Source: a virus
Strand: one strand, 5' to 3'
DNA: 64,000 nt
Virus record (IMG/VR): IMGVR_UViG_3300045988_123906
Shown piece after piece: positions 12,289 through 62,112 of this stretch. Every line of letters starts with the position of its first letter. Position 1 is the first letter of the stretch. Made by a program: the position numbers and the translations under genes. The notes below the pieces were generated by a model that saw nothing but the letters and a program-made list of their open reading frames with translations, made no database searches and was not told the origin of the DNA.

Positions 12289-12303
12289 TTGCTCACTCCT
12301 CTC

Positions 12304-29876: not shown

Positions 29877-32800
29877 ACCGACCGTGTCTGCATCTTGGAT
29901 AACTGCGTTTGCAGCGGTACCAAGCGCAATAGTTTCTTCCAGTGTATTATTAGCAGCCGACATAGCAGCAGAACTACGAGTCAAGATTTCACCAAGGTCT
30001 TTTGCGGTAACAGGTTGCGTATTTGCTACAGCGTCAATTTTATTAACAACGTCCTCTGCCTGATCAGCAAGCAAACCAAAGCTTTGCATTGTCGAAATCA
30101 GATACGAAGACGAAGTGTTAACATCATCAATTCCGTCTCCCACGTTTTTGAGCAGGGTAGAGTAGGTAGCCATATTCTCAGCGTCTTCATCAGAATAACC
30201 GAGGCGCTTCCAATCAGCAGTCGAATTGACGTAATCACTAATCGAAACACCAAGCTTTTGTGCTTGCTCAGACGCGCGGCCCATATACTCTTCAAGAGAT
30301 TTGCCGGCGTATTCACTGACTTTGCGTAGTTCTGTAACAGCTGTATCGATTTCAACTACATTCTGATATACGATCCGCAGAGCGTCTTGCATCTTGTGCA
30401 AAGCGGCCATAGTGATCATGGTGCTCAAATGCTGGCCAAAAAGCTTTTCAAACTTATCAACTAAGGTTTCTGTTTCAAGTCCAAGTTGTTTTGACTCAGC
30501 ACGAAGTTCAGCATGCCTCTTTTTTAGCTCGCCAATTCGTGCAGGTGCATCACTGCTATTTAAAGCATTTAATAACTCATAAAATCCTTTTCCTGTGTCT
30601 GTACCTTGAAGTTTTTTATTTGCATCAAGGTAATCATGGATCGTTGATTTCAAATTTGCAACTTCAGTAGACGCTTTATTAAACGAACGCTCCTGCGAAG
30701 TGGCTGCATTAAAATTTTTGGCTTCTTGTGTTGCTTCACTATATTCGTTATTAAGCGCGTTTAGTGCATCAGTGATAGAATTGATGTTACTAGCTGCTGT
30801 TTTTGTTAAATTACTTGTGGCCCATGTTTTTGCAGCTTGTACAGGATCGGTTCCTTCCTCGACACTGGTAAGTAAGTTGCTTAACTTGTCTTGTTTTTCT
30901 TTTAATTGAGAATAAAAGTTTTTATCTGTTCCGTTATTGCTTTTTACTTTTCCAATCAAAGACTGATTGGAGTTCATAGCTTTGTTCACTGCGGATGCTC
31001 CTGCAATTCGAGCACTAGCTTGTTTTATAGCTTTATTTTCAGCGTCGTTTACAGCATCAACCTTTATCTTTATTTCCTCCCAAAGGGGAATGATTTCTTC
31101 CAGAGTCTTAGCGTATTCATTGGTTTGAGCAGGAAGTTTATTGAGTTTTGCAATCAGTTCATCAATGTTTTTAAAATCAACATCCTTAAGACTGCCATCT
31201 TGTTGCATCTGTCGTGCAATTTCAACACCTTGAGCAATTTTATTACCCTTCTTCTCAAGCCCCTTATAGCCTTTGCGCCACAGGGTATGTTTTGCTTGAA
31301 CAGAATAAGTGTTTTGCTTCAAAGCCAAAAGATCACTTGCATAATTATCATATTCGGCTGGGTTCTTAGATGCAAGTTCTGCAGCTTGTTTTTCGATTTT
31401 TGCGATCTCGTCTTTTAACTCGTTATTGGAACTCTGGGAGACCTCTTCTTTAAGTAAAGCAAATCTCTTACGAATAACATCAACTGCCGAAACAAGATCG
31501 TTTTCTGCTTTTTTAGAAGAATTTATAGCAATCATAACATTCTTCCAATTATCTTCTGCTGCTTTAACTGCATTATTATATTCTTCTGTGCCAGCAGTGG
31601 CTTTTGCAATTTCATCAACGAGTCGCTGTTGTACATGAAGAGCTTCTTGAATAGCTGTAGGGGTTTTATTGGCTGCATTAGCTTCTTCAACAGTACCGTA
31701 AGTCTTTTGTGCTTCTGTCAACTGATCAGTGATCTTTTTGCCACGAGTAGTTTGTGCAACTTTATTTTTATTACTTTCATGGGCCTTTATAATGGAGATC
31801 TGGCGATCGACTTTTTCTTCGACTTCAGCATCTTCTTTTCCCATTTGATCCATTAAATCAGTATATTCTTGGATCGTTAATTTCATCGAATTTAAAGTTG
31901 CATTTTTTTTCTCATCTAATTTATCAATCGCATTTTTTACAGCTATTGCTTCATCAGAATTTTCATCTTCTCCAAGACGTGCTTTCTTTAACTTATATGT
32001 ATTTTGTTCGTTTCTGTATGCACGATAGGCAGAAAGTTTTCCATTATTATATTTATTTCTTTCATCTTGAGCTGTTTGAATACTTTCTTGACTCTCTTTT
32101 ACACTCTTAGAATCTGCATGACGTAACCGAGTATAATCGACTTCTTTATTTGCATAGCGGAATTTTCTGTCAATATACCATTTATCGCTATCTGTATTTG
32201 TGTCGTTTAACAGCTTTACGATTTCATCACGATTTGCTCTTAAATTTTCAAGACACTTTTGAATAGTGCTAACTTCAGCTTCAGAGACATCATCAAGCAA
32301 GTTCTTTGTCTCAGCGATTTTTTTATTGACTGTTATTAAGTCACTAATCAAACCACGGCGAGATGTAGAAGTTTTTCTATTAGTAGAAGCTGTTTTAGTA
32401 GTATCTTTTGGGTTAGAAGATTTTTCGGATGCATCTCGAATAGCATTAGCAATTTCAGCGTTTTTTAGAATCAGATTACCCTTAACATCAATACCGCCTT
32501 CTGGTAACTTGATGTTGTCTTTTGTGACAGTTACTTTGCCATTCATCACTATTGGATCAGGTCGCTCAACATCTTTGTCTTCAAGTTTGATGTGACCTTT
32601 CAACTCAATAAGCTCTTGCTTTTCAATATCGTTTTGCGATTTCTTCCTTTTGCCTTTCGTCTCGGTATCAGTAGTTGTTGTGACAATTTTACCTTTAACT
32701 TCAACCGGGGTCTTTGGAGGAGTTATATCTGCGGCTTCAAGAGTAACATGGCCTTTGATATCTACTGGTGTTTCGGGTGCGACAACATCATCAGCACTCA

Positions 32801-34523
32801 AAATAACCTTACCATCAATTGCAGCCGGTTCACCAGTGACCGCGATATTGGAGGTATCGATTTTAATAGAATTAGATTTATCGATATAATTGTTTGTCAG
32901 TTCAGAAATGCGAGTAAAATCAGCAATTTGATTCTCTAGTGAATGACTTAAATTATCGACTTCCTGCACTACATACTGGAATGCTGGACCGAGTTCAGCT
33001 ATTTCTGATGCATAGCTATCAGTTTTATTAACGATACTTTGCAATGCTTTTTTTGCAGATGTAATTGAATCGACATTTTTTTGCAATTCTTCTGTATTGC
33101 CAAATTGAACAGCATCAGAATTAACTACAACAATACCAGGAATTTGAACCGGATCTTTGACATCAACAGACACATCTGCATCGGTTATAACGACTTTACC
33201 TTGAATAGAAACAGAAGACAACCCTTCTTCGACTCCTGCTGCGCCATCCTTAGAATCTTCTTGCCCTTTGGAATCAGCAGGAATATTTTTTTGACCATTC
33301 GGTAAGACATCAATTAGAGTCTTTAGCTGTTTTACCTTCTCTTCAATATTGTCAACATGTTTATCAACTTCAACAGTAAGGTTGTTTGAAAAATTTTTAG
33401 ACTTACTCTCTAAACCATCCATTGCGGCACTAACTTCACCAATAGATTGAATGATTTTCTTTGTATTCTCATCGAGAACAGATGAATCAATAGGGATGCC
33501 AGCACCAATAGACTCTTGCTCGGATTTTTTTAGCCCATCTATTTCCTTTTTAGAACGATCGATTGATTGTCCGATTAAATCATTAAGATGAGTGAATGTC
33601 GAAGCATAATCTAATAAGTCTTGATAATCTTCCACTGACTTGGAAAAAACAGAATAATCTCCACCTTGACCTCTGAGATTAGAGATATCTTCAAGGCCAC
33701 CTTTTGCATTATCAATAAAATTTTTCAAGATAGAACCTTTGATGTTAAGATTTTTTAATGCACCAGGAGCATTATACAACTCTTCCAATTGAACAATTGC
33801 ATTTTTTATAGAATCATATGTCTTTTCAAAATCTTTGAATGTGTTATTATAAACAGATTCATCCGCTTCGTCCCATGCTTTGGACATCAAAGAAAGAGAG
33901 TTGCTAAGATTGATCAGCGCCTTACTCATTTGATCAATTGAAGTTATATCACTATCTGCTGAAATCTTGCCCGCTTCTTTTAATTTCGGCATTTCGGAAT
34001 AAATATCATTCAACTGTCGATTTAGTGTTTGCGCTTTTTTAATATCCTTTTTTGAGATTTCATTGAAAATACTATCAACCGTTACATCTCGATTTCCACC
34101 ACCAAAAAGTCCATACGTGGCTTTATTAGCAAGTGCAAGATTAGTTTGCATCTCCTTTAGATAATTAGAAAGAGTGCGATTTACACCACGAAGCTGCTCT
34201 TTTAGTTGCTTTGAAAGGTCATTGCCGAATTCTTTAACGTCTAGTTTGACCTTAATTTGTTGAGCGCCATTTTGTGCGGCAGTAATCTCGTCGTTAATCT
34301 GTTGCGTTAAGTTTTTCTTAAGATTTGGTTCGATATCAACACTATAAGGTCCACCTAATCCTTTTTCAATTTCGTCCTGTAAGTTAGATATATCAGGCGT
34401 AATAGGGACAGCAGGTAATTTTTTTATATTGCTGACTTGCGCCCGTACATCTTCTTCAAGTTTCGCCTTATTGATTTGCGGGTCAACCTTAACTTTGATG
34501 CTCAATTCTGGTTCTCTCGCCAT
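29877..34523 (-). CDS. tape measure protein, exon 1 (1549 codons)
   Basis: SD GAAGGAGGAA before ATG 34523. Long coiled-coil sequence ending in the TMP core motif ALGTAANAVIQDADTVG, which continues in exon 2. Confidence 0.75.
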
Positions 34524-44111: not shown

Positions 44112-45635
44112 TTATGCCTCCTGTCTATCGGCGCTTACATTGCCAGCATCAGACAGGCCCTCGCCCTTACTTGCATTTGTTGGGCGGCCACCTTCATCCC
44201 CGGCGGAACCGGACTGAGTATTGGAGCTCTTGAGCGGTGTTTCACCAGCACTAAGTCCCAGGATTTCATTTTCAAGATAAGTCATGTTCTCATAATCGCT
44301 ACCCGCATAACCAGTAGTTGCAAGAGCGGCGGTTCGAGTCGGCATACCATAGGTGGCATCCTTGAGATATCTTTCATGCATCTCAGTCACGTTATAATGA
44401 GTGACTGGTAGGAAGTTTAGGCGGAACTTATAAGAACTGGAAACGCTCTTCAGCTTGCGATTGATCCAGCGCTCCAACTGTCGCATCACCGCAAACACGA
44501 TCTCCTGGTCATTCACGGTACACAGCTGCAGGGTAGTAGCAGAAGGATCTTCGCCACCGCCGAACAGATTCTTATTCACGCCAGCGCCTGTAAAGAATGT
44601 GGCCTCAGCATTTGCGACCTCTTTAGAGTCACTGTTCACGCCGCTCTTTTCAAAGTTCCAGCTACTGATCTTCATGGGAGTAAGAATTGCGCCAATATTC
44701 GGCGGAAGTACATTACTCATCATGTCATAGAACTCTTTTGCTGTATCATAGTCGATCAGGAAAGAGCCGTCAGCATCATTCACTGGAATCTCCATTGCCA
44801 GCGCCTTATAGTTATTGGTCTCACTTGCGTTTTTACTGATGGCACGGTAGTCTTCAATATCGGCAAGCGCACTAAACAAACTCACAAATGGGGGAATGGG
44901 GATATAATCGTGCTCGTTTACTTTGATGCAGATGGATTTGGAACTGTCCAGCTCTTGCCACTTGTAGTTCTGCGAGTCAGCCTTATATTGGTTATACATC
45001 GTCTCAAACTCTGGCGGATAGTTGGGCAGCTTGTCTTTGTTGGAATCAAAATAAGAAAAATCAAAAGCAAAATTATAAACGCCGTCTTCAATGCTGCTTA
45101 TTTTACAATAGTCGGCATCAAGATTTTGGAAAGCAAAACTGTCATTTGTCTCCCACGCATAGCCATAGTAAACATCATCGCGGAATGCAATTGTCAGTAT
45201 CTTCGTAGCTTCGTGCGGGATATTCATCAGCTCAACTGCTGTTACAGCGGAATAATATGCTTTCTTAAATTTATTGGCGTTAATTGTCTTAGAGCGATCA
45301 AGTCCATACGGAGAGATCGTGTAAGAGTATGTAGACATATTCGCAAAATACTGAATCAGTCGGCGATAGTAATTTGAAATATTGAATAGATATTTACTCA
45401 TATTTCGTAGCTGCTTCTCATAGTTGGCTGGGTTGCCAAGATAGGTTACGATCTGATTTTTCGTATATTTTGTATATGTTGGATTTGTGTCGGTACTCGA
45501 TGCTAGATTACGGATACCGATATGTGACAGGTTCGCATAAACGCCATTGACAAGATCCTGATATGTTACATAAGAGGTCTTACCATCTTTGGCATTTGTT
45601 ACGCGGACCTTTTTCTGCATTTTATCTTCAGCCAT
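44112..45635 (-). CDS. portal protein (507 aa)
   Basis: Called from its size and its position immediately after terL. SD GGGAGG. Confidence 0.65.
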   Translation of the reverse strand: MAEDKMQKKVRVTNAKDGKTSYVTYQDLVNGVYANLSHIGIRNLASSTDTNPTYTKYTKNQIVTYLGNPANYEKQLRNMSKYLFNISNYYRRLIQYFANMSTYSYTISPYGLDRSKTINANKFKKAYYSAVTAVELMNIPHEATKILTIAFRDDVYYGYAWETNDSFAFQNLDADYCKISSIEDGVYNFAFDFSYFDSNKDKLPNYPPEFETMYNQYKADSQNYKWQELDSSKSICIKVNEHDYIPIPPFVSLFSALADIEDYRAISKNASETNNYKALAMEIPVNDADGSFLIDYDTAKEFYDMMSNVLPPNIGAILTPMKISSWNFEKSGVNSDSKEVANAEATFFTGAGVNKNLFGGGEDPSATTLQLCTVNDQEIVFAVMRQLERWINRKLKSVSSSYKFRLNFLPVTHYNVTEMHERYLKDATYGMPTRTAALATTGYAGSDYENMTYLENEILGLSAGETPLKSSNTQSGSAGDEGGRPTNASKGEGLSDAGNVSADRQEA

Positions 45636-47392
45636 TACAGTCCTCCCTTCTTTAATACAGGCGCTCTAAAGTTAAACGTGAGCGAAGTTGGCTTTTTATT
45701 CTTCTTCTCCATGCTTCGTTCAACTTGCTGCGCAATGTAATAGTTGTAAGACAGGGAAGAGTAGCGGTCTTTACGGCAGCCGGATTTCTCCTTGACTTTG
45801 ATAACGTTATTCACGGTTTCGTAGCCCAGATTTACAAGCTCGTTTACAGCAAGTCCGGTATTGATATATGGCATCTGTAGTGCGGCTCGTTCAGTAGGCG
45901 ACATTTTATCATAGCCTTTATAGATTTTGCGCAACTGGTCTTCACATCCGTACTCACTCTGAAGCAGATGGATACGTCCTTGCTGGAAACCGCTGCGTAA
46001 TCCAATGGCTACATCGCTATTAAACTGGGAGCTGCCCATAATAGCCTAGATGACCTTGCGAGCATTTTTGTCAGCACAGCGAGATGCGATTTCTTGATTG
46101 TTACAGCAGCTAATCGCAGGATACGTTTCGCCTGTTTCTGGGTCATACATATCGCGCATTAACAGGTCGACCAGAGGTAATCCAACGCCTCTACAGTCAA
46201 CCCCGATATAATCACAGTTGAAGTAATCGAAATACCGTCGCAGTTTTAGTGCCTGGTCTTGCGCACTCATACCCTCAACGTTCTCTGAATAGACAAAGTT
46301 GCTGGTATAGCGCCCTGATTTATTCGGCAGCATACAGTTCAAGAATATACTGGTTGCGTCGTTGTCGTTTTTGCGACTGCTCATCAATGCAATATCGGCA
46401 GTAAGAATTCGCACTTCACCATTTTTCTTTTTCGGCACATCCATAGCAGCTTGATTAAGTAAAAGATTCGGTGCGTAGAACGCCTTTTCAATGACGCGCG
46501 TTTTGTTGATGTCATCAAATTGAAATAAGCCGCCTTCGGTAGCACCAAGCCACTTACATTCGTTCTCCATTGCAAATGTCAAATCAGAAAAACTGGATTC
46601 ACTCATTTCATCTTCTACAGCCTCCTTCAACAGCAAGCCGCTCTTGATTGACATTTGATACGGGAAGGATACGCAGAAATATTTTTTATTAAAGTCGATC
46701 ATATTTACGAAGTAGTCCTGACATTTTTCATAGCTCCAATGGTTTTGGAACCAAGCAGAACTTAGATAGAATTCTTTATTTCGCTCTGCAAGATGTGCAT
46801 ATTGTGGCTTGTCCAAATATCCAGGATGACGAACAATATTCAGGAACTTCTTCAAAATCAAATCAATAACATCTTTAGATAGTAATCTATATTCATCACA
46901 GATAAGAAGTGTAGCTCGACTACCACGACTGCTATCTGTTGCAGTGACAACTTTGATATAGCTACCGTTCCTAAATATAATTTCTGCCTTTTGATTATTG
47001 ATATCGACCTTTTTGATTTCAGATCGTAGAAGGGGACTATTGGGGTAGATCTCCTTCATTATCTTTTCATCCAAAATACTGATAGATTGGCTTCTTACCT
47101 TACAGGCAATACAAACCTTGGAACCAGGCCATAGAATACATGTAATCACACAGAAAACTGCGGTTAGAAATGACTTACCAAGGCCACGAGCAGCAATGAA
47201 GCAGAAGCCGGTACATCTTACCATCAAAAACAATAGTAGCTCTTGGAATGGCTTCAATGTCAGGTTTAAATAGTCTTTTGCAAACCGCTGAGGATTCGCC
47301 CTATAAAATGACGCCCTCAGGGCAACTGCGTTCATTATTTTTTCTGATTTTGTATTCGCTACTTCCTTATCTGTTAATTTCTCTTTACTCAT
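45635..47392 (-). CDS. terL: terminase large subunit, 585 codons, in-frame TAG at 46046..46048
   Basis: Walker A ARGLGKS and Walker B LLICDEY. ORFs 46046..47392 and 45635..46039 are in the same frame, separated by TAG plus 2 codons. The downstream piece supplies the nuclease-side C-terminus (KDRYSSLSYNYY). Confidence 0.85.
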
Positions 47393-48387
47393 GCGGAACC
47401 ACCGCCTTCGCCAATACCGAAAATAGTTTCGCGGAGGCTAGTATCTGTGGCATCGTCCTCATTTGTCTCTGGTTTATGAGCAGTATATCGTTCAAACTCT
47501 TCGTCAAATTCGTCTTGATATGGATTCTTTAAGTTGAACATCTTAAGCAACGTGCCCAACACCCATACTCTGAAATACTTACCGATACCATCAACGTCCT
47601 GCCACTCTGGCGACGGCTCTGGAATCGGTTCTTCCTCTTCCTATTTCTGAATCAGCGTGCCAAAAGTATTCGTCTCAGCCAGTGCGTTATCGTTCGTCTG
47701 GTTCGGCTTGATTTGGGCAGAACCCATTAGGTTTTGTAGGTTATCGTTTGCCTCTTTGATCTTTTTGGTATCACCAGTGGCATCAGCCTTATCGCAATTA
47801 AGTTCTGCCTTTGCAATGCGTTTGAACAGAATTTCTTGTGCGGCCGTCTTACATTCATGTCTAGTGATAAGATTTTGATAGTGCTCATCAAGGAATAAAT
47901 AATCTTTTTCATCCAGACCAGTACCCCAGAATTTTCTCATCTTCAGAGTGACCTTTGTCCCCTTTGTATCACCGGCAGCCAAAGCGTCTTTTTTCTTCTG
48001 GTCGATCACATCGTCATAAGATTTATCTGCATACTGACGTATATTAAGCCGTCCCATATAGGTGTTAATTTTTAAAGCAGATGCCACAGAATGTTCTGAA
48101 GCGTCAAGCAATTTATCATTTACATAGGTATCGAACATCATAGCCAGACGGTCAATCGCTTCATCTTCATCGTTATACTTCTTAACATAAAACTCAAACA
48201 TCTTCTCACGGCACTCATTGCACCACGGGAGGTATCCGTCGTTACCAATAAACCATTGACTCTTCGTTTTTGAGAAATTACCTTTGCGCACGTCATAGAT
48301 TTTTCCGCAACACATACATTTACCACCACTCCAAGAGGGCGGAACCTTGATACGAGGCGGTTTCTTATCTGCGGCAACTCTGGCCAT
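47389..48387 (-). CDS. terminase small subunit-like protein, 332 codons, in-frame TAG at 47641..47643
   Basis: SD GGTGGTGA before ATG 48387. Read-through adds 83 acidic codons and ends in an ATGA overlap with terL, which has no SD of its own. Confidence 0.55.
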
Positions 48388-48628
48388 AGCCAATCACCAC
48401 CGTTCCATCGTCCATCATATCATCGAAGCGATATTTGATCTGATCCTATAGTTTTAAAACTTCATTCAGTTTTTTCGTCTTGCGGAATTTTGTATATACA
48501 GAGCCGGTTACCGGGTGCTCTCCAATCTCTTCGTAAAAAATTCCCATAGCGCGAACAAACAGCGCTGTCCGTCTGGAATAGCAGTAGAAGTAATCGCCTC
48601 CTAAATCTTTGTGATATTTTTCTTCCAT
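48365..48628 (-). CDS. hypothetical small protein (60 aa to TAG 48446, 87 codons if read through to TAA 48365)
   Basis: ORF 48446..48628. The extension would overlap the TerS-like start, so it is ambiguous. Confidence 0.4.
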
Positions 48629-48664
48629 CTCTAATTTGGAACCCTCCTTTTTAACTTATTTTTG

Positions 48665-48741
48665 TGGGTACAGGTATGCGAGTTGAACGCATCCAAACAC
48701 AGCTTATGAGGCTGGTCAGCACACCGGCGCTGTCACCTGCG
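48665..48741 (-). tRNA. tRNA-like element, anticodon CAU (Met/Ile2 type)
   Basis: Hand-folded cloverleaf. Acceptor CGCAGGU/ACCUGUA with a C1-A72 mismatch. D stem CAGC/GCUG with GG in the loop. Anticodon loop CUCAUAA. T arm AUGCG-UUCAACU-CGCAU. 3' CCCA. G8 and G14 are non-canonical. Confidence 0.4.
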
Positions 48742-48745
48742 ACAT

Positions 48746-48778
48746 ATAAAAATGCCCCAGGCCGTAGCCCAGGGCATC
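48746..48778 (-). terminator. rho-independent terminator after the phosphoesterase gene
   Basis: The minus-strand RNA forms GAUGCCCUGGG-CUACGG-CCUGGGGCAU followed by UUUUAUAU. Confidence 0.6.
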
Positions 48779-48788
48779 AAAATCTCTA

Positions 48789-49973
48789 TTAAATTACTAT
48801 CTTTGCTGGCTTCTCCAGCTTGACATCGTACAGACATTCTAGGCCGCTGTCATCGATTACAGCCACTGCCTGTTGCGGCACATCATTCTTGCGCAGTCCA
48901 ATTGCGTAGGAATCGCTGCCACAAACGCAGCCGCTCTCAATAACCTTCGCACCATGCACCGTTGTCATGCCGTTTGTGTGGCGGTGACCAAGGAACGCCA
49001 TGTCAATTGGCTGCTTCACCATCAGTGTCAGGTGCTCAACGACGTTAGCAGGGGAGTCTTTATCTCCATGTGCGTACATCACAAGACTATTCCTAGCTTT
49101 AAAGCCACCAAAGGTCGGATCGAGCTTCTCTGTTTTAATATCAATGCCAGCCAGATTTTGCAGCCGTGCCTTCATATAGAACGGGATCAGTGCCTCAAGT
49201 TCATCGCCTGCTACCTGATCCTCTTTGCTGGGGAATACTCGTGAATGATTGCCACTCACAGAATACACGTCAATATGCTGGCATACCTCGTACAGTGTAG
49301 CAACAAAATTACTTACCAGCTCTGCAGCCGTCATAACCTGCTCAATGCTGTTTTCATTGTTCTGCACGCGGGTATTAACATGGATATGCCCATTGATCAG
49401 GTCGCCCAACAGCAGCACATGAATCTTTTCGGCTGTATGTCGCGCTACGATATTGAACACCTGTGCAGCATAACTCTCAAGCCTAGCTTTCAAGATATCT
49501 TTGTTGAACTTATTCCACGCCGAATCAATACCCGCGCCAGCATGTAAATCAGACAAACACACAATCACATCGTGACCGCTGTCTTCGTATTGCACAACAT
49601 TCAGAAAGTTGTCAGGGTTATACGGAGCAACGTTCTTCAGAATCAATTCCTTAACGGATTCGGCACGGGCAACATCGCGATACACTTTGTTTGCTGCATT
49701 GCGTTCATCTTGTAATTTGATCTTTTCAATCTTCAGTCGCTGTAGTTCATCCTGGATTGTTTCTTCGTTGGCGTGATCAATAGCGTAGTCATAACCATCT
49801 TTCCACGACTTATAGGTCTTGCGGTATCTGCATTCGCCATAGTCTGAGCCGGTTGCTTCATTCAGCAGTTCTGCTGCCTGATTCTAAGTCAGCTTACGTT
49901 CGCTGCATGCCTCACCAATCCGCATCATATATTCATCAAAGGTCTCGCCGTCCGCTTTCTTAAATTCGTCCAT
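48789..49973 (-). CDS. metallophosphoesterase, 394 codons, in-frame TAG at 49884..49886
   Basis: Calcineurin-type motifs LSDLHAG, GDLINGH, GNHS and GHRH. SD GAGGTGG before ATG 49973. The N-terminal 96 codons are open across the TAG. Confidence 0.7.
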
Positions 49974-49981
49974 GCGCCACC

Positions 49982-50179
49982 TCAGATCTCAAAATTGGTG
50001 TTGGTACGCTGGGTGCGGTTCAGTTCGCGTAGCGCCTCTTCTGCCTCGGGATTGCCAGGCAGCTGAGTCAGCACAGACTTGATTTCCTCCGCATACCAGT
50101 GATGAACGGTACGAGTGATATGGACACCGGGAATAACCTTACGCAGATACTCTGCCTCACGCTTAGTAATTTCAACCAT
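49982..50179 (-). CDS. hypothetical small protein (65 aa)
   Basis: ORF with an SD-like AAGGAG and TGA stop. Confidence 0.5.
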   Translation of the reverse strand: MVEITKREAEYLRKVIPGVHITRTVHHWYAEEIKSVLTQLPGNPEAEEALRELNRTQRTNTNFEI

Positions 50180-50255: not shown

Positions 50256-51068
50256 TCATTTCGGTCGTTTGTTTCGATTCGCATTCTTTTTCGCTAGACG
50301 TGCCTGTTCTTTCTTTGCCGCACATCCTTTGCAATATCTGCTGGCATTTGGCTTTTCTGAGTGATACTGTTCGCCACACACGATGCAATAACATTCCTTC
50401 GGGTCAAACAACTCTCGCACTATGGCGCTTAGATTCAGCCGATTGTTTTCAAGCATCACATTGAACGTGTACGCAATCGTGTCATTCTTATCAAGGGCAA
50501 AATTTGGGTACTGGTATAAGCATCCAATGTCGTCAGTGCCGGTTCTGTTCAGCAGGTGATAGTCGTCAGAGATCTCTTTCATGCCCCGCACTGTATTATA
50601 GCCGTCGTCCTAGTTCTTCCCAGCGCAATACATGATCTCTGTCTGCTCTTCAAAGCAGCCACCAAAACGTTTCATCTTAAACTCAGTATCCAAGGCAAAG
50701 GTATCACTTCCATACAGTCGGCAGAAGAATATTACCCCAAACAGAACACGTAATTGTGCGTAGTTGATATGATACTTTTGGCGCGCCTCTGTGATATAGT
50801 CCAGATCTTTCTGATAAAGCACAACTTGATGTACGTCAAGTATGGGCGCGTTATTTTTACGGCCTCTGCTGAACGTCTGGATCAAGTGGCTACGGTCATA
50901 GCTGACAGACTCAGGATTTTTCATCCGCTCATAATAAATGGTGGCGCATTCAATAGGGGAGAGGGAGGTTCGCTTCAGCAGATTTCGCAGCATCAGATTT
51001 GACTCGTGATAGTCCTGCCAATGATCGAGCAGCATATTCTCATTACAGTAGAAAGTTGTATATGCCAT
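50256..51068 (-). CDS. hypothetical protein, 270 codons, in-frame TAG at 50610..50612, C-terminal CxxC..CxxC and basic tail
   Basis: ORFs 50610..51068 and 50256..50591 are in the same frame with an open 6-codon linker. Confidence 0.55.
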
Positions 51069-51077
51069 TTAACCTCC

Positions 51078-51362
51078 TTACTCGATTGGTATAATTTCGC
51101 CATCAATATAGCGGCAAAGTTGTCCATGTGCATTATAGTATGGAGACATATATCCACTATGTAGCCAATAATATATAACTCTTGTATTCTCATCATAGAT
51201 AAGTTTCGTATTAGAAATACTATACAAAGAACTTCCATTATAAACAGCTTTATCGCCTACATTGTTTTTACGCGGAATAGATGCCCAAATTCCAATACCT
51301 AAACATAAACATATTATAGCTATCAAAGTAATTATTGTTATTTTAAAACACCGATAACTCAT
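51078..51362 (-). CDS. small membrane protein (94 aa)
   Basis: N-terminal transmembrane helix ITIITLIAIICLCLGIGIW. ATGA overlap with the upstream gene. Confidence 0.55.
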   Translation of the reverse strand: MSYRCFKITIITLIAIICLCLGIGIWASIPRKNNVGDKAVYNGSSLYSISNTKLIYDENTRVIYYWLHSGYMSPYYNAHGQLCRYIDGEIIPIE

Positions 51363-51607
51363 TCTGTTTCATCCTTCTCATCAACTGCTTCGTGAACATA
51401 ATTTGAAATACGCTCGAATTCGGTATAATCAAAATACATCTCGCCACAATCACCGCATACCATCGCCGTGATATCCGGCACATGAACCATCTGATTTTTA
51501 TAAGTAAATTCGTGCTCCAGTCCAGTCTGCTTTGTCAACAAGCCGCCACATGTAGGACACTTGGTTATTTTCTGCAGTTTCTTTATTTTCTTCTCAAACC
51601 AACCCAT
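51359..51607 (-). CDS. YgiT/MqsA-type zinc-finger protein (82 aa)
   Basis: CPTCGG...CGDCGEMYFD spacing matches YgiT-type zinc-finger domains. Confidence 0.5.
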   Translation of the reverse strand: MGWFEKKIKKLQKITKCPTCGGLLTKQTGLEHEFTYKNQMVHVPDITAMVCGDCGEMYFDYTEFERISNYVHEAVDEKDETE

Positions 51608-51608
51608 A

Positions 51609-54152
51609 TTATTTCACCATCGCTTCATATATTTTCGGTTCAGCCAGACTATATCGCTGGCCAAGATATTCGTACTCGCCGTTCGGATCGTGAACTGGCA
51701 GCTGAACAGGAACCGGCTTGATATTTTCGACCACACCAGCGCCGGCCATGTGCCACAAGAACTTCTTGAATTTATTGGGATACTTCTCATAGCAAAGCAC
51801 TACAAGAATATTCGCCAGCTCTCTCACATCAGGACACACCAGCTTGCACTTGTTACGGTAGACATTGTAGATCGCCTGCCAGTTCGTTTCATATGTCTTG
51901 GCCTCTTCTTTGGTAATACGCGACTCAATGTCCTTATGATATAATTGCCAGTTGCGGCATTTCTTTTCGAACTCAAGTTGTTCCTTACGGCATTTGTTGA
52001 AGTCCAAGAAAATGGCCTCGATCTCGTCAAAGACTGCCTGGTCATAGGAGACCTCTGGGTCGTACATGATATGCCAATCAAAGCTGCCTGCGGGCTCTTT
52101 GCGCCACCGTACACCGCGCTCCCAACGCTCCAGACTCATGCAAAGCAGGTTCATATTGCTATGTGCCTTGCTGAGATTATGTAAACGTGCGTAGTAAGGA
52201 CCTGCATACTTCATAAAGTAGGGTAGGGGACGACCATAAGCTGCTACATTACGCGGGATCGGATACAGAACACCGGTTTTAGCATAATCGATAGCTTTTC
52301 CGTTGCAGATGCTCAAAAGCGAAATATTATCGTGATAAAGCTTCTTGGTCTTTTCCATGGTCGGAACCTTATTATGGTATGCAGTTGCGTAATTTGAAAT
52401 CTCGCCAATAGAACTCTTCAATCCGCGAATGGTGCAGGCGACTTTGTTCTTCACAATATCACATTCTGCTAACGCAGTGATCTTATCTTCAACATCGAGT
52501 GTAATAGGGATATTATCAGGAACACCACTCATCATCAGTGGATTATCGATGATTAGAACCAGGTCGCCGTCAAAATCAGAACCATTGAGTCTGGAAGCCA
52601 CGATGGATTTGATATTTACCATAGCAACATTCTGAAGATGGCTGCAGTATTTGCGGGTGTATTCGTTGTCTACAGCCTTGGCCTTTACATGCTCGGCAAC
52701 AGAAATATGGGGATTGCGCTCAATTAAGCGGTTTCCCTCCATCACACCACGACGATCAAAGCTGTAGAATTCACCGTCTTCAAGGCAGCCAGTCACAGGA
52801 AGGCCACCAATATGCTGTAACAGTGCAATAAGGTCAGGGGCCCAGAACTTAAAAGTAGCATTCATCCAAAGCCGACCGCACTTCATCTCATTGCGATATT
52901 TATCAAGCAGCGAGTGAATATAATCTTTGATTGCCGGCTCTTTTACCATCACTGGGTTGCGCAGGGCAGCAGCCATGTAATGATTCATTGGGTCGTTGTT
53001 CTCAGCAAGTAAACCAAGGAAGCAGTATGTATAAATCGGGTCGCCTTTGACAATATTCTGATACCAGGTAATGCTGTCATCAGCTAGATGCTTAAAAGAC
53101 TCATTGTCGAGCTGTAGATCTTGAATAACCTGATAGTTACTACGGGTGGAAAGCGGTTCTTGTTCAAGCGTAAAGTTCCATTTAGCCACACCAAGGCAGT
53201 TATCGTACTTCTTGAAAAGTTCCCAGTATCTCTCCCAGTCAGAATAGGTACCAGTTTTCTTGAAATATTTGAGACCCTTGTACATTGAAGCAGTAATAAT
53301 AATCATTGGTTCGCTGCCAGGTGTTACATCATATTCCATGCCCCAGATGTCCTTGATTTTTGTAACGCCGTTCTCTTCAAAAAAACGCTCGTAATCAATC
53401 TCGTGTAAACAACCCTTGATATATGGAGCACGCAGAATCAAACTGTTCATCCGTTCAGAAGTGCCGATACGCTTTTCAAATTCGCGCATGATACTTGGGT
53501 GGCAGATTCCAGCACCATCAAATGCGTTGATATCAATGTCGACTGTTTTTGTGGCGATATCTTTCTGAGTCCAAGTACGTTCTTTACCTGTTTTGCGGTC
53601 ATTAAACGTCACAGTCTTGTCTACCAGATACTCGATCCACTGATTTTTGATCGTTGTCATATAGTCTGGAACAACAATCATTTTGGGGTACCAGTTCTCC
53701 AGGCAGTGGCAGCTGCTCAGCATCAAACCACGATAAGCATAATACTTACTCAGGACGGTTGGTGTTTCAGAAAAATCTAGTTCCATGCTTACACGGCGGT
53801 CGAGTTCAGGGTAGATATGTCGCTCAACAAAACTTAACATGCTCTGACGGACCATACTTGCACTACGTTCACAGAACAGATATTTTTGGCCATTAAATTT
53901 GAATCCATGCTCTACTAAATGATCGATAGCATCAGGGTGGTTCTGGCCGCCTGTTGCATCAACAAAGATAATAAAGCGCTGGAATTTATTCTAATCATCG
54001 GAAATGAGCCGAATCTGTCTAAACAGCATATCGTCACCCTGCAAGACCTTATACTGCTCCATCTCTTCTGGTGTCAGTTTGAAATTATAGTTATGAGAAA
54101 CGATATAATTCAAGTTAAATTTTAGTACGCTATATAATGGTGGACTAAACAA
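51609..54152 (-). CDS. YonO-like single-subunit RNA polymerase (two-barrel family), 847 codons, in-frame TAG at 53991..53993
   Basis: ERNPHISVAEH...RLNGSDFDGDLV matches the RNAP beta-prime NADFDGD metal-binding loop context. GAGGAG SD and a TTG start at 54152. The N-terminal 99 codons are open across the TAG. Confidence 0.65.
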
Positions 54153-56209: not shown

Positions 56210-56670
56210 ACCAAGCTGTCACACACGCATTCATCCCGCTGCACTTCTTTAGGCGCAGTTGGCGGTGTAAACTCAACCTCGCTCGGATCGTATGTCATCA
56301 AAGAACAGGCATCGATTCGCACATTCGGGAAGCACATGAACTTAAAGCATCGGTCAATATCATCAACAACAAGTGGCTTATCCTCTAAGTGCAATCCACG
56401 ATAATTATCGGGAGGACAAGTAGTTGTTATCACGTGAATACTGTATTCTCCGCGAGCTCTGCTTTGTAAATCCACTATAAGGCATTGATGATCAACCCTA
56501 TACCCCTAATATTGAATATCAAGGTTCCTTGCGATTTCCTTGATATAGTCCTGTGCACATAATATAGCCGTCCCGCCCATCGGCACCAAGATGTTACAGT
56601 TGTTCTTAACAGCGTATTCGCAGATCGCATATGTACGTCCACCGCCTCGTGGCGCTAATATTCTTTCCAT
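56206..56670 (-). CDS. CxC-tail family member e, 154 codons, in-frame TAG at 56506..56508 (ends ECVCDSLV)
   Basis: AAGGAGGG before ATG 56670. The frame is open across the TAG into ORF 56206..56475. Confidence 0.55.
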
Positions 56671-57772: not shown

Positions 57773-59164
57773 TTAGTCTAACAGGTCAGCCAGTTGTGCT
57801 GTCTCGCTGCGTTCCGTCTTGTTCAGGTAGACATATCCAAAGTGCGGGTTACCAGCCAGACACTGAATTGCTTTACGCATTCCGCTGTTATTTTCAAACA
57901 CGGCCTCGTCAGTCTGCTTCAGGTCACCATCAAGCCACAGCATAGATCCCTCACCAACACGGCCGAGTAACAGCTGTACATGCTCTTTGGTCAGATTCTC
58001 AGCCTCTGAAACCATAATAATTGCATTCTTGTAGTCGCGGCCACGAATAAATCCAAGGTGAGCTACTTCTACCTGCCCATTATTGATCCAGTATTCCAAA
58101 CCAGCCTTGCCGCCCAAGTGATCAGCCAGAGGGCCAGCAAAAGAAGCAGCGCCGAGCTTCTCTAGTAGGGTACCGGGTAGTGCGCCCAGCTCCTTGGTAT
58201 TCTTGACTTCGATGTTATTGCGAATCCAGATCAGCTTCTCAACTTTGTGCTTCTCGATCATATCAATAGCAGAGGACACCATAAGCATTGTCTTGCCGCT
58301 GCCGAATGTTCCAGCCAGCATTTTAACGGTAATATCGTCGTTCTGCAGCATATCAAATGCGAGCTTCTGTTGATCATTGAGTGGTTTTACGTCGCCAGTG
58401 AAGCGATTACTGATCTTTTTGTATTTGAGTGGTACATATTTCTTGCCATTCCATCGTAGCCAGCCTACCGCATTACCTGCCGGCATATCATCGTCTACTG
58501 TGTCTGGATCACGAACAATCAGATAGCCATTCACTGGAGTGTCAAACAGATTCTGATATGTATAGCCTTCATCGTGGGTCTGATATGCCATCGCCATGGC
58601 TTCCTCGCCGCCTTCATCAAGAGTGACTTCGGTCTAGCCAGTGTAGTTATTGTTGGCGCTTACTGCTGCATCGGGATAGGTGAATTCGATCGGCAGGTAA
58701 AGAATGCCGCTGGCAATATTGGCGCAACTTAGGTCGCTGGTAACGAACTTGAAAGAATCAATGTTGGCCTGGATCTGTCGCTGTGCTTCCGGGAGCCCGG
58801 CTTCAATCGCGTCATCCAGGTTGCGCTGCATCTCGTCCAGATACCAGCGGGCGGTTGCCATGATTGTCGCGTCGTTGTTGTCACTAATCGGTTTGCCATC
58901 CAGAATATAGAACAGGGAAGACATTGGGACTGCCACTACCATAAAGGTGTTGTCGTCGTGATGCTCGGCCAGCAGGCGGGTTACAGTACGGGCCTTATAG
59001 CGGATCTCTTCGCTCTTCTTGCCGCTTGTTTTGATCTCTTCCAGCTCATGCAGTGTCATATCGGCAATCAGAAACGGCTCTGTTGCACCAGAGGCTGTTG
59101 CACTGGCAGGTTCGAAAGCGGCGGCTCCCAAATCAAGAAGCGCGGAGGTGTCATAAAACTTCAT
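57773..59164 (-). CDS. phoH: PhoH2-like PIN-PhoH ATPase, 463 codons, in-frame TAG at 58634..58636
   Basis: The N-terminus is PIN-like (FYDTSALLDL). The C-terminus is PhoH-like (Walker A GTFGSGKT, GALPG, FIRGRD, Walker B IIMVSEAEN). The two ORFs are in the same frame with an open 12-codon linker. Confidence 0.75.
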
Positions 59165-59225
59165 TAACGGGTTATCCTCCTTTAATAATGATATTGTAAA
59201 GTGTGATTGACTACTGAAAAGATAA

Positions 59226-59258
59226 GCTCGCAGCTGTGGAGAGAACTGCGGGCTTTTT
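59226..59258. other. GC-rich hairpin with flanking T/A runs in the phoH leader
   Basis: GCTCGCAG...CTGCGGGC followed by TTTTT on the plus strand. On the minus strand it lies between the promoter and the SD. Confidence 0.4.
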
Positions 59259-59269
59259 CTTTATACCTT

Positions 59270-59298
59270 ATTATACACCAATGACGTGGTAAAAGCAA
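59270..59298 (-). promoter_or_regulatory. sigma70-type promoter for the minus-strand early operon
   Basis: On the minus strand: TTGCTT (59293..59298), 17 nt spacer, TATAAT (59270..59275). Confidence 0.5.
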
Positions 59299-59337
59299 TA
59301 GTTTTGTGCAAAATACCGGAATAAAATAATCTGTTGT

Positions 59338-59403
59338 AAAAATAAATAAAATATAGTAAAAATGGCAGAAAAATTATTAAAATTAAGCAAAAATGAGCAA
59401 AAA
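59338..59403. repeat. seven phased A4-5 tracts with a period of about 10 bp
   Basis: A-runs start at 59338, 59348, 59358, 59369, 59379, 59389 and 59399. Confidence 0.8.
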
Positions 59404-59469
59404 TAATGCATTTTAAGCGTTTCTGCGGCGCTTTTGGGGCGCTGTTACGCGGCGATCAAGATACAACTG

Positions 59470-59760
59470 CGTGAAGATTGGGGTGAAAAACATTATTGAC
59501 GCGGAGCGTTTTATAACGATAATACGTTGTTTACCGGAGACAAAATCGGGGGTTAAATATGGGCGTTTTACGGGTGCGCAGATAGGGGAGATGACGGAAG
59601 ATTATGGGGTGATCAACAGGTGATTTTGGGTGCTGGTGACTGCGAATGAGGGGCGAATGTGGATGGATGATTGTTGCGTGGAGGAGGTGAGTGAGAGGCG
59701 GGTGAGGTGCGAAAACCGGGTGATTTGGTACGGGCTGGGGAGATGGAATAACTGGTACGC
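59470..59760. repeat. C-depleted, G-rich noncoding block with repeated GGGTGA motifs
   Basis: GGGGTGAAAAAC, GGGGTGATCAAC, AGGTGATTTTGG, GGGTGAGGTGCG and GGGTGATTTGG. There are very few C on the plus strand from about 59570 to 59758. Confidence 0.6.
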
Positions 59761-60435
59761 ACGACCCAAACTCGACCCCTTTTCCAATTTTTAACATCCC
59801 CCCGGTATGGCCCGAAAAGTCTAGGACTCATGCGGGTTTTCGGTGAATGCTACCTTCCGTTATTAGGTAGTATTCGAGTGCTGGAAATCTGGAATTTTCT
59901 TTTATACCTTATCTATATATAGGGGAAATCCTTGCATGGATGTTTCGTGCAAAAAATTTAATATGCTATTATGTAGTCACTCCAAGGGGCTACGGAAACA
60001 AGGCCCCGGGGAGTAGTCGCACCTTGAAAATTGCAAAGTTTGGATTTTCCCATGTGGGCGGTTTATACCGTGCCGGGTTTTCCGGTCAAGTGGTTATCCC
60101 TTGCCATTCCAAAACATGGGTCTCCTATCTGAGCAATTAGTGCGCCCAAACCCCCGATGGCCAAACATTACTGGCATAATTCCCAAGAACGTGGGAGAAG
60201 TTGCGGGGATGGTGTACCTTGACAACAGAATACAGGCAGTTCCGAGAACAACACAATAGGAATTGTTGCAACAAGGTCAGAGCTACTGTTGTAGAGCATG
60301 GAAAACGCCAAGGTCAGAGCTGGCGACAATTAACAAGCTCCAGAGAAATAAGTGTTTGATGGGTTTGGAACCCTAGAGGAGAAAGAAACCTTACTTGGTT
60401 ACAATTGTAGCCATTTTACATAAAGCCGGGCGCTT

Positions 60436-60465
60436 GGTAGTACCGGGGGAGACGTAACTACCACC
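60436..60465 (+). promoter_or_regulatory. conserved leader motif copy A (GGTAGTACCGGGGGAGACGTAACTACCACC)
   Basis: Shares CC-GGG-N-A-GACGT-AAC-TA-CC-AC with the copies at 62082 and 63168. The stem GGTAGT/ACTACC shows compensatory changes relative to copy C. Confidence 0.4.
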
Positions 60466-60521
60466 AACGGCAAAACGCCGTGTCCGATATACACCAACTG
60501 AGAAAACAAGAGGTAATAACT

Positions 60522-61373
60522 ATGCTGAAAGTTTATGCTGACTACGATGCAATCGCCAAGGCTGGCAAGCTGAACGAGCTGACCATCCCCGAGCTGGTGA
60601 AGTTCCTGAACGAGCAGAAAACTGTTCTGACCGCTGAGCAGTCTCAGAACGTCACCACCACGCTCAACAAGGCTGTTGAGAACAACAACAAGGCCGCTTG
60701 CGACAACAAGTGCGCTGAGTTCTGCGCCATGGAACGTTCTGAAATGTGGCGTTCCTACGCTCCGAACCCCTACTACATGGGTATCAAGATTACCACTGAC
60801 CCCAAGAGCGGTACTCTGTCCACCCAAGATGCCAAGATGCTCATCAAGTTCAAGGCACTGGAGAAGTATTACCAGACCCTGAACGCTGTCGAGACCAACG
60901 ACAAAGGGGAGCCTATGCCCAACAAGAGCGTAACTCTCTGCCGTGATGGTCACTATGAGAAACTGGTTATGCTGTTCAACGGTATGCTTTCTGAAGAGAC
61001 CGCAAGCGAGCTTGGTGCTGACAAACTGACCCGTAGCGCCAAGGTGGAAGAAACCCTCAAAGATATGGGGCTGGATTGCTTTGTCGGTCATGTCAACAAG
61101 GGCAAGCGCCTTGCTCAGCTCCAGGCTATCTGGAACGCCATGCTTCCTGAAGAGCTGGCAGCGGCCTGCACTGCGCTGTCCTGCGATATTAAGTATCTCA
61201 AGATTGCGGCCAATCGGGCAAAACAGGGCTCTGTCAAGGGTCTCGGTGATAAGGCCATGATTGACGAGATTGTTGTCACTATCTCCAAGGGCCTCTCTTT
61301 CGATGGCAAGACACGTTCTTCCAAGTACGACTTTGCAAGCAAGAGCAAGTTCTTTGCCAAAGCCGAGCAGTAA
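60522..61373 (+). CDS. hypothetical protein (283 aa), high-GC3 codon usage
   Basis: AAGAGGT before ATG 60522. Ends in TAA. The antisense ORF 60399..61478 has no SD. Confidence 0.6.
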   Translation: MLKVYADYDAIAKAGKLNELTIPELVKFLNEQKTVLTAEQSQNVTTTLNKAVENNNKAACDNKCAEFCAMERSEMWRSYAPNPYYMGIKITTDPKSGTLSTQDAKMLIKFKALEKYYQTLNAVETNDKGEPMPNKSVTLCRDGHYEKLVMLFNGMLSEETASELGADKLTRSAKVEETLKDMGLDCFVGHVNKGKRLAQLQAIWNAMLPEELAAACTALSCDIKYLKIAANRAKQGSVKGLGDKAMIDEIVVTISKGLSFDGKTRSSKYDFASKSKFFAKAEQ

Positions 61374-61496
61374 CACGCAATAGTCGGATACCCTTTCGGG
61401 GTCGCACCGTTCAAAGCGGCCCCTTTCCAGCTCCGCAATAGGGGCGTAGCGCCTTAGAGTGTGGCGCATTGTAGACACTCAGAAAAGAGGTTCACT

Positions 61497-62069
61497 ATGG
61501 ATTGTCCTTACATCATTCGTGAGAACATTGGCTTCGGCCGTGTTCGTGAGCATGGTTACTATCAGCTCGATGAGATGGCCTATGACCTGACCCACGACTT
61601 TGCAAACGCAGATGTCGAGGTCATCACTCGCACTCTGTACAACGTCACCATGGAGAGCGGCGAAGAGCTTTCCCAACTGGATGACGACACGGTGTTCAAG
61701 ATGTTGAGTGCCGGTCTGCCTGTCAAGTACATTGAGAACGCAAGGGATGGGTACATCATGTACTCTCGTCCTGAGAGCAAGCCAGCTGTCGAGGTTAAGA
61801 GAGTCGGCGGTATCACTCGTGCAAGCGCAAGTCGTGAACAGTACGATGATGCAATCATTATCCCCATGGCAAAAGAGTGGGCGGTTCTTGACCGTGCAGA
61901 CATTGGCGACCATTACCGCGTTATGGAATTCAAAGACAACGCCATCAATATGTTTGAACAGAAGACCGAACGTAAATGGTGCAATCGTCCGTTCTATGAT
62001 GAAGTCCGCCTGTATCACAATGGGATGCTTGTGCGGCTTTCTGTAAACGGACACGAGTTCATTTTTTAA
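61497..62069 (+). CDS. hypothetical protein (190 aa)
   Basis: AAAGAGG before ATG 61497. Ends in TAA. Confidence 0.6.
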   Translation: MDCPYIIRENIGFGRVREHGYYQLDEMAYDLTHDFANADVEVITRTLYNVTMESGEELSQLDDDTVFKMLSAGLPVKYIENARDGYIMYSRPESKPAVEVKRVGGITRASASREQYDDAIIIPMAKEWAVLDRADIGDHYRVMEFKDNAINMFEQKTERKWCNRPFYDEVRLYHNGMLVRLSVNGHEFIF

Positions 62070-62081
62070 CATCGTCGTTTT

Positions 62082-62112
62082 CGTCCCGGGCATGACGTTA
62101 AACTACCTACCC
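62082..62112 (+). promoter_or_regulatory. conserved leader motif copy B (CGTCCCGGGCATGACGTTAAACTACCTACCC)
   Basis: See copy A. It lies about 80 nt before ATG 62190. Confidence 0.35.

Follow-up and report, generated by a model that had tools for sequence, protein, structure and literature searches.

A YonO-like single-chain RNA polymerase gene in an SPbeta-like gut phage whose in-frame TAG codons appear to be read as tryptophan

The only characterized phage relative of the gene reported here is yonO of phage SPbeta. YonO is a processive DNA-dependent RNA polymerase (RNAP) on which 37 late SPbeta genes depend. It initiates upstream of yonK and responds weakly to pause signals; its aspartate triad is essential, given that a mutant with three Asp-to-Asn replacements (3D>3N) is inactive (Forrest et al. 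2017, PMC5467207). According to a review, the late cluster of SPbeta is transcribed as one polycistronic messenger RNA (mRNA) (PMC8270828). Here we describe a gene at positions 51609 to 54152 of the virus record IMGVR_UViG_3300045988_123906, analyzed as one stretch of 64,000 nucleotides (nt), hereafter the window. Based on sequence comparison, a structural model and analogy with SPbeta, it is highly probable that the gene product is a YonO-type single-chain two-barrel RNAP, most likely the phage's own DNA-dependent RNAP for late genes. The gene carries an in-frame TAG, and comparisons with related loci suggest that TAG in this phage clade is read as tryptophan (Trp).

The minus-strand frame comprises 847 sense positions and a stop, from a TTG start at 54152-54150, with GGAG 9 nt before it, to a TAA stop at 51611-51609. 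Under the standard code, only an open reading frame (ORF) of 748 amino acids (51609-53855) is obtained. The homologues start with MFSPPLY... where the TTG lies, and their alignments are unbroken across the TAG; the 847-codon reading is therefore correct. A reading of the plus strand was discarded because that strand is full of stops and has no open frame here. A preliminary description, made from the sequence alone, had proposed an 847-codon gene containing both ERNPHISVAEH and, about 40 residues further on, a second motif. Both motifs are present in the gene, on the minus strand, with RLNGSDFDGDLV 43 residues after ERNPHISVAEH, and the size is close to that of YonO (847 versus 839 amino acids), as also anticipated. 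The features of the gene are the following.

51609..54152, minus strand: putative YonO-like two-barrel RNA polymerase gene, 847 codons, TTG start, TAA stop
53991..53993, minus strand: single in-frame TAG, codon 54; readthrough needed for the full-length enzyme
53412..53432, minus strand: RAPYIKG, candidate beta-like second-barrel motif; aligns with YonO RLPWVKG
52689..52721, minus strand: ERNPHISVAEH motif, residues 478-488; aligns with YonO LRSPHLFREH
52557..52592, minus strand: RLNGSDFDGDLV, beta-prime-like barrel metal-binding motif, residues 521-532; aligns with YonO FDNDGD
52563-52577, minus strand: aspartate triad D526/D528/D530 within RLNGSDFDGDLV; invariant in 68 homologues

The protein has a single match in Pfam, to RdRP (RNA-dependent RNA polymerase; PF05183), with 60.8 bits and an E value of 1.3e-16 over profile positions 56-558 of 582; the curated gathering cut-off of this family is 23.8 bits. 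In PHROGs, it matches phrog_8308 (E 5e-92), a family of 847 positions with function unknown, and its link to another family, which has the label RNA-dependent RNA polymerase, is faint. A BLASTP comparison with SPbeta YonO, for which the query was P0001, a 99%-identical database copy of the polymerase, gave an E value of 9e-26 and 24% identity over 665 aligned columns. This alignment pairs ERNPH with LRSPH, DFDGD with DNDGD and RAPYIKG with RLPWVKG, so that DFDGD falls on the YonO triad; in a profile search, DFDGD aligns with GGDYDGD of QDE-1. By reference to the published description of two-barrel enzymes, RAPYIKG is a candidate for the motif of the second barrel. Invariant in an alignment of 68 homologues are D526, D528, G529 and D530, the run R479-N480-P481-H482, and also R241, P243, K246 and G247. 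Similarity to two-barrel polymerases thus extends well beyond the short DFDGD string, as the preliminary description had required of its proposal: the PF05183 score is above its cut-off, the BLASTP match to YonO is significant, and the fold matches reported below agree. These sequence comparisons and the structural model support placing the polymerase in the YonO-like/PF05183 two-barrel family, an already known enzyme type.

Relatives are numerous. A protein database search returned at least 573 related proteins or clusters. The best 120 (all at E <=1.7e-251) are nearly all of 800-880 amino acids, all 120 carry PF05183, and a few among them come from Clostridia genomes, under the NCBI name 'RNA dependent RNA polymerase'. 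A relative of the polymerase is present at 68 IMG/VR loci. Among deposited phages, tblastn matched 44 records, which include Thomasclavelia phages TR-TP1 and TR-TP2 (39%, full length) as well as Enterocloster, Clostridium, Psychrobacillus and Bacillus/SPbeta-group phages, the match in the SPbeta group falling on yonO (E 4e-13). The view that such polymerases are rare does not stand up to these numbers of protein clusters and IMG/VR loci, nor to the homologues in cultured Thomasclavelia, Enterocloster, Clostridium and Bacillus phages; counted by homologous sequences, putative YonO-type polymerases are common in gut Firmicutes phages.

A single-sequence search of the PDB gave no match, and a PDB profile search reached QDE-1 only at a nonsignificant E value of 1.5, alongside a spurious match to ribosomal L31, so that a comparison of structures was needed. 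An AlphaFold2 model, built on P0001 (817 amino acids; without the first 30 residues) and an alignment of homologues, had a mean predicted local distance difference test score of 91.8 and a predicted template modelling score of 0.86. Foldseek aligned this model with 21 PDB chains of plant RDR2 or fungal QDE-1 at E values of 5.8e-22 to 7e-16, with a template modelling (TM) score of about 0.5 and about 860 aligned columns; individual matches are RDR2 7w82 (E 5.8e-22) and QDE-1 5fsw (E 2.6e-20). The virion RNAP of a crAss-like phage, 6vr4, came next (E 1e-3, TM 0.24), followed by weak matches to beta-prime and Rpb1 chains (beta-prime E 2e-3 to 0.1). Among viral models (BFVD), the best matches are phage proteins labelled RdRP (E 4e-36). 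There was no YonO structure in the PDB copy searched. The comparison with YonO, QDE-1 and beta-prime proposed in the preliminary description was made with BLASTP for YonO and with Foldseek for the others, strong for RDR2/QDE-1 and weak for beta-prime. Superimposed on single-chain QDE-1 and RDR2, the model predicts both barrels in one chain of about 100 kDa.

The polymerase gene precedes the late packaging and structural genes of an SPbeta-like phage and has the same orientation. From about 59 kb down to position 1, nearly all real genes are on the minus strand, and about ten small genes lie between the PhoH-like gene and the polymerase gene. The neighboring genes that bear on the comparison with SPbeta are the following.

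57773-59164, minus strand: PIN-PhoH-like gene, the most upstream gene of the array
51359..51607, minus strand: zinc-ribbon protein gene, 82 amino acids, starting 1 nt after the polymerase stop
49982-50179, minus strand: YonK-sized ORF, 65 amino acids, named for its size
48789-49973, minus strand: YonJ-like exonuclease gene (YonJ match E 1e-22; PHROGs)
47389-48393, minus strand: YonG-like gene (YonG match E 1e-47; PHROGs)
45635-47392, minus strand: terminase large subunit (TerL) gene, product 39% identical to YonF (E 2e-151; PHROGs)
44112-45635, minus strand: portal gene (PHROGs)
44112..50179, minus strand: downstream block mirroring the SPbeta late operon (PHROGs and pairwise matches)

Two ORFs separate the zinc-ribbon gene from the YonK-sized ORF. 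The YonJ-like gene is followed by a strong terminator hairpin, a small ORF and the YonG-like gene, and head and tail genes follow the portal gene. In SPbeta the order is yonP-yonO-yonN-(gap)-yonK-yonJ-yonH-yonG-yonF-yonE-yonD-yonC-yonB..., and public Pfam annotations of the same genes in relatives include YonJ_N, YonG_N/C, YonD_N and YonB. This synteny is repeated in Thomasclavelia phage TR-TP1 and in at least 10 metagenomic relatives. Related IMG/VR contigs reach 140-150 kb; the SPbeta genome has 134 kb. The zinc-ribbon protein matches Pfam MqsA_antitoxin (31.7 bits, cut-off 30) and Zn_ribbon_TFIIB (24.2 bits, cut-off 22), and its gene is kept downstream of the RNAP gene in the related loci L005, L009, L011 and L012; by inference from this position and these matches, the protein could be an accessory factor of the polymerase.

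At the upstream end of the array, positions 59165-60479 comprise about 1.3 kb without a convincing ORF, between the minus-strand PhoH-RNAP-late array and plus-strand genes starting at about 60480. The GC skew changes sign in this gap, which has a counterpart of about 1.7 kb in relatives and is probably a divergent control region. Minus-strand ORFs at 60399-62093 look like antisense artefacts. Rfam RAGATH-5, a ribozyme type, matches at 61384-61436 on the plus strand (52.1 bits, gathering score 50), with a plus-strand ORF of the divergent early region on either side. Elsewhere, in the 99%-identical relative L005 (Logan ERR6212251_37130, positions 10687-13495), an insertion of about 1.3 kb with a DUF723/DUF4379 ORF inside interrupts the TerL gene; the window lacks this insertion, which may represent a homing endonuclease or an intron.

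Homology and synteny with YonO together lead us to propose a late-gene DNA-dependent RNAP. Transcription of the polymerase gene would start in the divergent control region (about 59.2-60.5 kb) and take in the whole block from PhoH to the RNAP. The polymerase would then transcribe, in long units, the packaging, head, tail and lysis genes that follow on the same strand, in a manner similar to YonO in SPbeta, and would probably ignore the many intrinsic-terminator hairpins of that array. Synthesis of the full-length enzyme would require decoding of the TAG at codon 54, most likely as Trp.

A number of observations weigh against this proposal. The best structural matches, RDR2 and QDE-1, are enzymes named RNA-dependent. 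YonO fails the Pfam RdRP profile at E <=0.01, which the window protein and TR-TP1 gp3 pass; the protein is thus not simply a YonO, and the gut-phage clade is intermediate in sequence between YonO and RdRPs of the eukaryotic type. No recurrent promoter motif was found in the window, and no counterpart of the HU-like yonN was detected among the neighboring genes. Finally, with a TAG in the gene, expression needs a decoding system that was not found in the window or in the flanks searched.

The first two of these points, together with the PF05183 score above the cut-off and the naming of homologues as 'RNA dependent RNA polymerase' in public records, would fit a true RNA-dependent RNA polymerase that copies or amplifies phage or host RNAs, for example small RNAs. 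We consider this unlikely. The names of the homologues derive from the profile, not from assays, and YonO, the only characterized phage relative, is DNA-dependent (PMC5467207). Identity to YonO is 24% at E 9e-26, compared with 13-15% to RDR2/QDE-1 in structural alignments, and QDE-1 itself is found with DNA templates in the PDB (7y7r, 7y7s, 7y7t). In addition, the position of the gene in a double-stranded DNA phage mirrors that of yonO. The public name RNA-dependent RNA polymerase is probably wrong for these proteins.

The proposed late-gene role is of interest with respect to the terminator-like hairpins in the array, of which there are at least 6 strong ones on the coding strand.

48751..48778, minus strand: strong intrinsic-terminator-like hairpin with a 12-bp stem and a T run, after the YonJ-like gene
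41700-41678, 40636-40611, 37826-37796, 36530-36507 and 29765-29737, minus strand: terminator-like hairpins with 10-13 bp stems and T runs, between head and tail genes

Relatives retain the hairpin at 48751-48778, with substitutions in both arms of its stem, and similar stem-loops are present in the annotated late operon of SPbeta. Internal terminators in the gene array had been noted before, and these hairpins within the same-strand late array bear that observation out. By analogy with YonO, it is plausible that the phage polymerase reads through them. Matches to sigma-70-like promoters near the polymerase gene were not enriched (37 versus 30.8 +/- 5.3 expected). Two conserved intergenic elements, one located 5' of the YonK-sized ORF and one after the YonJ terminator, each occur once in the window; because they have only TATATG in common, we do not propose a promoter.

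The second of these elements, at 48640-48748 on the minus strand, is non-coding and directly follows the hairpin 48778-48751, between the YonJ-like and the packaging genes. It has 32 invariant bases (TATATGTCGCAGGTGACAGCGCCGGTGTGCTG), then two hairpins in which compensatory changes occur, and a helix that closes the structure. Its fold is a cloverleaf with an anticodon-like loop CUCAUAA, which ARAGORN reports as a methionine transfer RNA (tRNA-Met(CAT)) solely at the 80% threshold. A search for a riboswitch or another Rfam family gave no Rfam match for this element.

In-frame TAG codons are not confined to the polymerase gene. Profile and pairwise alignments continue across them in TerL, the YonG-like and YonJ-like proteins, PhoH and the polymerase. 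The positions in the window are listed here.

46046-46048, minus strand: in-frame TAG, TerL 449; alternates solely with TGG
47641-47643, minus strand: in-frame TAG, YonG-like 251; alternates solely with TGG
49884-49886, minus strand: in-frame TAG, YonJ-like 30; alternates solely with TGG
58634-58636, minus strand: in-frame TAG, PhoH 177; alternates solely with TGG
48446-48448, 50610-50612 and 56506-56508, minus strand: further in-frame TAGs, from the sequence
1447-1449, minus strand: example of a TAG in a tail gene, motif FGGT-TAG-E

The partner codons of these TAGs were obtained by comparing the window with 80 related loci. At 6 of the 8 informative window sites (TerL 449, YonG-like 251, small ORF 61, YonJ-like 30, 270-aa ORF 153 and PhoH 177), TAG alternates only with TGG in close relatives, and the SPbeta residues at the three alignable TAG sites are W, Y and Y. 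In the reverse direction, where a relative has TAG and the window a sense codon, the 21 sites have TGG (11), TAY (4), CAR (3), CAT (2) and AAA (1) in the window. Two of these sites are W306 and W325 of the polymerase, at which the alignment of 68 homologues has invariant Trp. All 29 polymorphic TAG sites taken together have TGG at 17, TAY at about 6, CAR at 3, CAT at 2 and AAA at 1. The genes of the window contain 204 TGG and 383 CAG codons, and the observed 17 TGG versus 3 CAR partners correspond to a binomial P of about 5e-6 when set against the CAG share of codons. At codon 54 of the polymerase, which is variable, the related loci have TAG (25), TAY (24), GAY (26) or AAY (2).

Because the partners of TAG are mostly TGG and not glutamine (Gln) codons, TAG is most simply synonymous with TGG. 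In this comparison, TAG lies inside conserved essential genes, as expected for genetic code 15, but rarely at positions that correspond to Gln (CAG/CAA). On the evidence of these codon exchanges, TAG in the phage clade appears to be read as Trp rather than as the Gln of code 15. Of the preliminary description's statement that this is a TAG-recoded phage, readthrough is borne out, and the TGG partners favour Trp over the Gln usually assigned to this codon. A survey of phage recoding (Borges et al. preprint) reported solely TAG-to-Gln and TGA-to-Trp, and a related gut-phage paper likewise assigns Gln to TAG. The database copy P0001 is translated with Q, although the underlying contig reads TAG. 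Formally, the alternative of a mechanism at the level of the mRNA exists, for example adenosine-to-inosine (A-to-I) editing that converts UAG to UIG. One further TAG, at 29853-29855 on the minus strand, directly precedes the TAA of a 1557-aa ORF (29850-34523). It may be the stop in a tandem TAG-TAA or may add one extra C-terminal residue, and TAG may therefore not be fully reassigned.

With a TAG at codon 54, and at Trp306 or Trp325 in relatives, synthesis of the polymerase and therefore late transcription would depend on the code switch. We see about an even chance that the SPbeta-like gut-phage clade reads UAG as Trp and that full-length polymerase, and hence late transcription, depends on this switch.

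A search for a tRNA with a CUA anticodon gave none in the window, none in 60 related loci within +/-10 kb around the RNAP gene, and none in a tRNA cluster located 9-12 kb to the right of the window in related contigs, even with relaxed ARAGORN thresholds; overall, the search covered all but about 60 kb of a genome of about 145 kb. This negative result, and a frame that is broken at codon 54 under the standard code, would be expected if the TAG were a true nonsense mutation in an inactivated gene with a truncated product or none. Such an explanation is hardly tenable given the pattern among relatives: the codon-54 TAG is kept in 25 independent contigs, and 49 of 78 homologous RNAP genes have 1-2 in-frame TAGs, compared with in-frame TAA or TGA in 0 of 78. 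TAGs are also present at conserved positions in terminase, portal (in relatives), YonJ, YonG and PhoH, with profiles aligning across them, and the 97 residues before the first standard-code Met hold the invariant R45, G83 and S97. Equally improbable is an early polymerase that is packaged in the virion and enters the cell together with the DNA, like crAss-like gp66 or the N4 virion RNAP. The Foldseek detection of 6vr4 at E 1e-3 could be cited for it, but that match is weak (TM 0.24), and gp66 has about 2,170 residues. Enzymes of the crAss/N4 type are virion proteins of about 2,000 or more amino acids encoded among structural genes, whereas this gene encodes 847 and, like yonO, is located upstream of the packaging module amid small non-structural genes. 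YonO acts on late genes.

The tRNA cluster itself is found about 9-12 kb past the right end of the window in related contigs (L156 3211-6277, L128 19424-20144) and contains Pro-TGG, Met-CAT, Leu-CAA, Leu-TAA, Gly-TCC and Leu-TAG. Its Met-CAT tRNA, of 92 nt and with a long extra arm, shares the CUCAUAA loop of the element at 48640-48748, and a mini tRNA-like acceptor/T-arm sequence lies between the Pro and Met tRNAs. The 48640-48748 element was considered as the missing suppressor and rejected: the triplet in its loop is CAU instead of CUA, and recoded and non-recoded relatives alike carry the element.

A YonO-type RNAP in this phage would extend what is known from a single experimentally studied enzyme, YonO, to human-gut phages of about 140-150 kb that form a large, abundant clade. 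Sequences between YonO and the eukaryotic-type RdRP profile can help to trace how two-barrel polymerases evolved and to choose a well-behaved orthologue for structural studies. The polymerase alone is of modest interest, and the evidence on recoding is the larger point of the locus. If TAG is indeed read as Trp, catalogues that apply code 15 put Gln at conserved Trp positions, for example in P0001, and the clade would be a new entry among natural phage genetic codes, tractable in essential genes and in cultured relatives. Translation-level recoding would then be placed upstream of a private transcription system in a phage developmental programme.

In conclusion, compared with SPbeta YonO (PMC5467207), the polymerase described here is likewise a single chain of similar length in which R-x-P-H and D-x-DGD align, encoded at the same position ahead of yonK, yonJ, yonG, terminase and portal counterparts in a large SPbeta-like siphovirus module. 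It differs in that identity is just 24%, the metal motif is DFDGD here and DNDGD in YonO, the gene carries an in-frame TAG, and, unlike yonO, it has no terminator directly after it and is followed by a zinc-ribbon gene instead of the HU-like yonN. The host is probably a member of the gut Clostridia rather than a Bacillus.

The closest deposited phage homologues are those of Thomasclavelia phages TR-TP1 and TR-TP2 and of the uncultured 'Bacteriophage sp.' MT836002. TR-TP1 gp3 is 39-40% identical over 99% of the length, and the MT836002 protein is 62-65% identical; these homologues are labelled RNA-dependent RNA polymerase or unannotated. In all three phages, the exonuclease, terminase and portal genes follow downstream in the same order as in the window. 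Unlike the window, TR-TP1 has no TAG at RNAP codon 54 or TerL 449, and has a holin and an endolysin gene between the exonuclease and terminase genes.

With the RNA-silencing RdRPs QDE-1 and RDR2, the polymerase shares the PF05183 match, the best fold matches and a catalytic loop aligned with DYDGD; by contrast, identity is 12-15%, and the polymerase is encoded by a bacteriophage and probably uses a DNA template. The crAss-like phi14:2 gp66 (6vr4) and beta-prime belong to the same two-barrel superfamily and were detected after the RdRPs, with TM <=0.24. The solved chain of gp66 has 2,166 residues and is virion-packaged, and beta-prime is a subunit of a five-subunit core, whereas the polymerase of this SPbeta-like phage is predicted to hold both barrels in a single chain.

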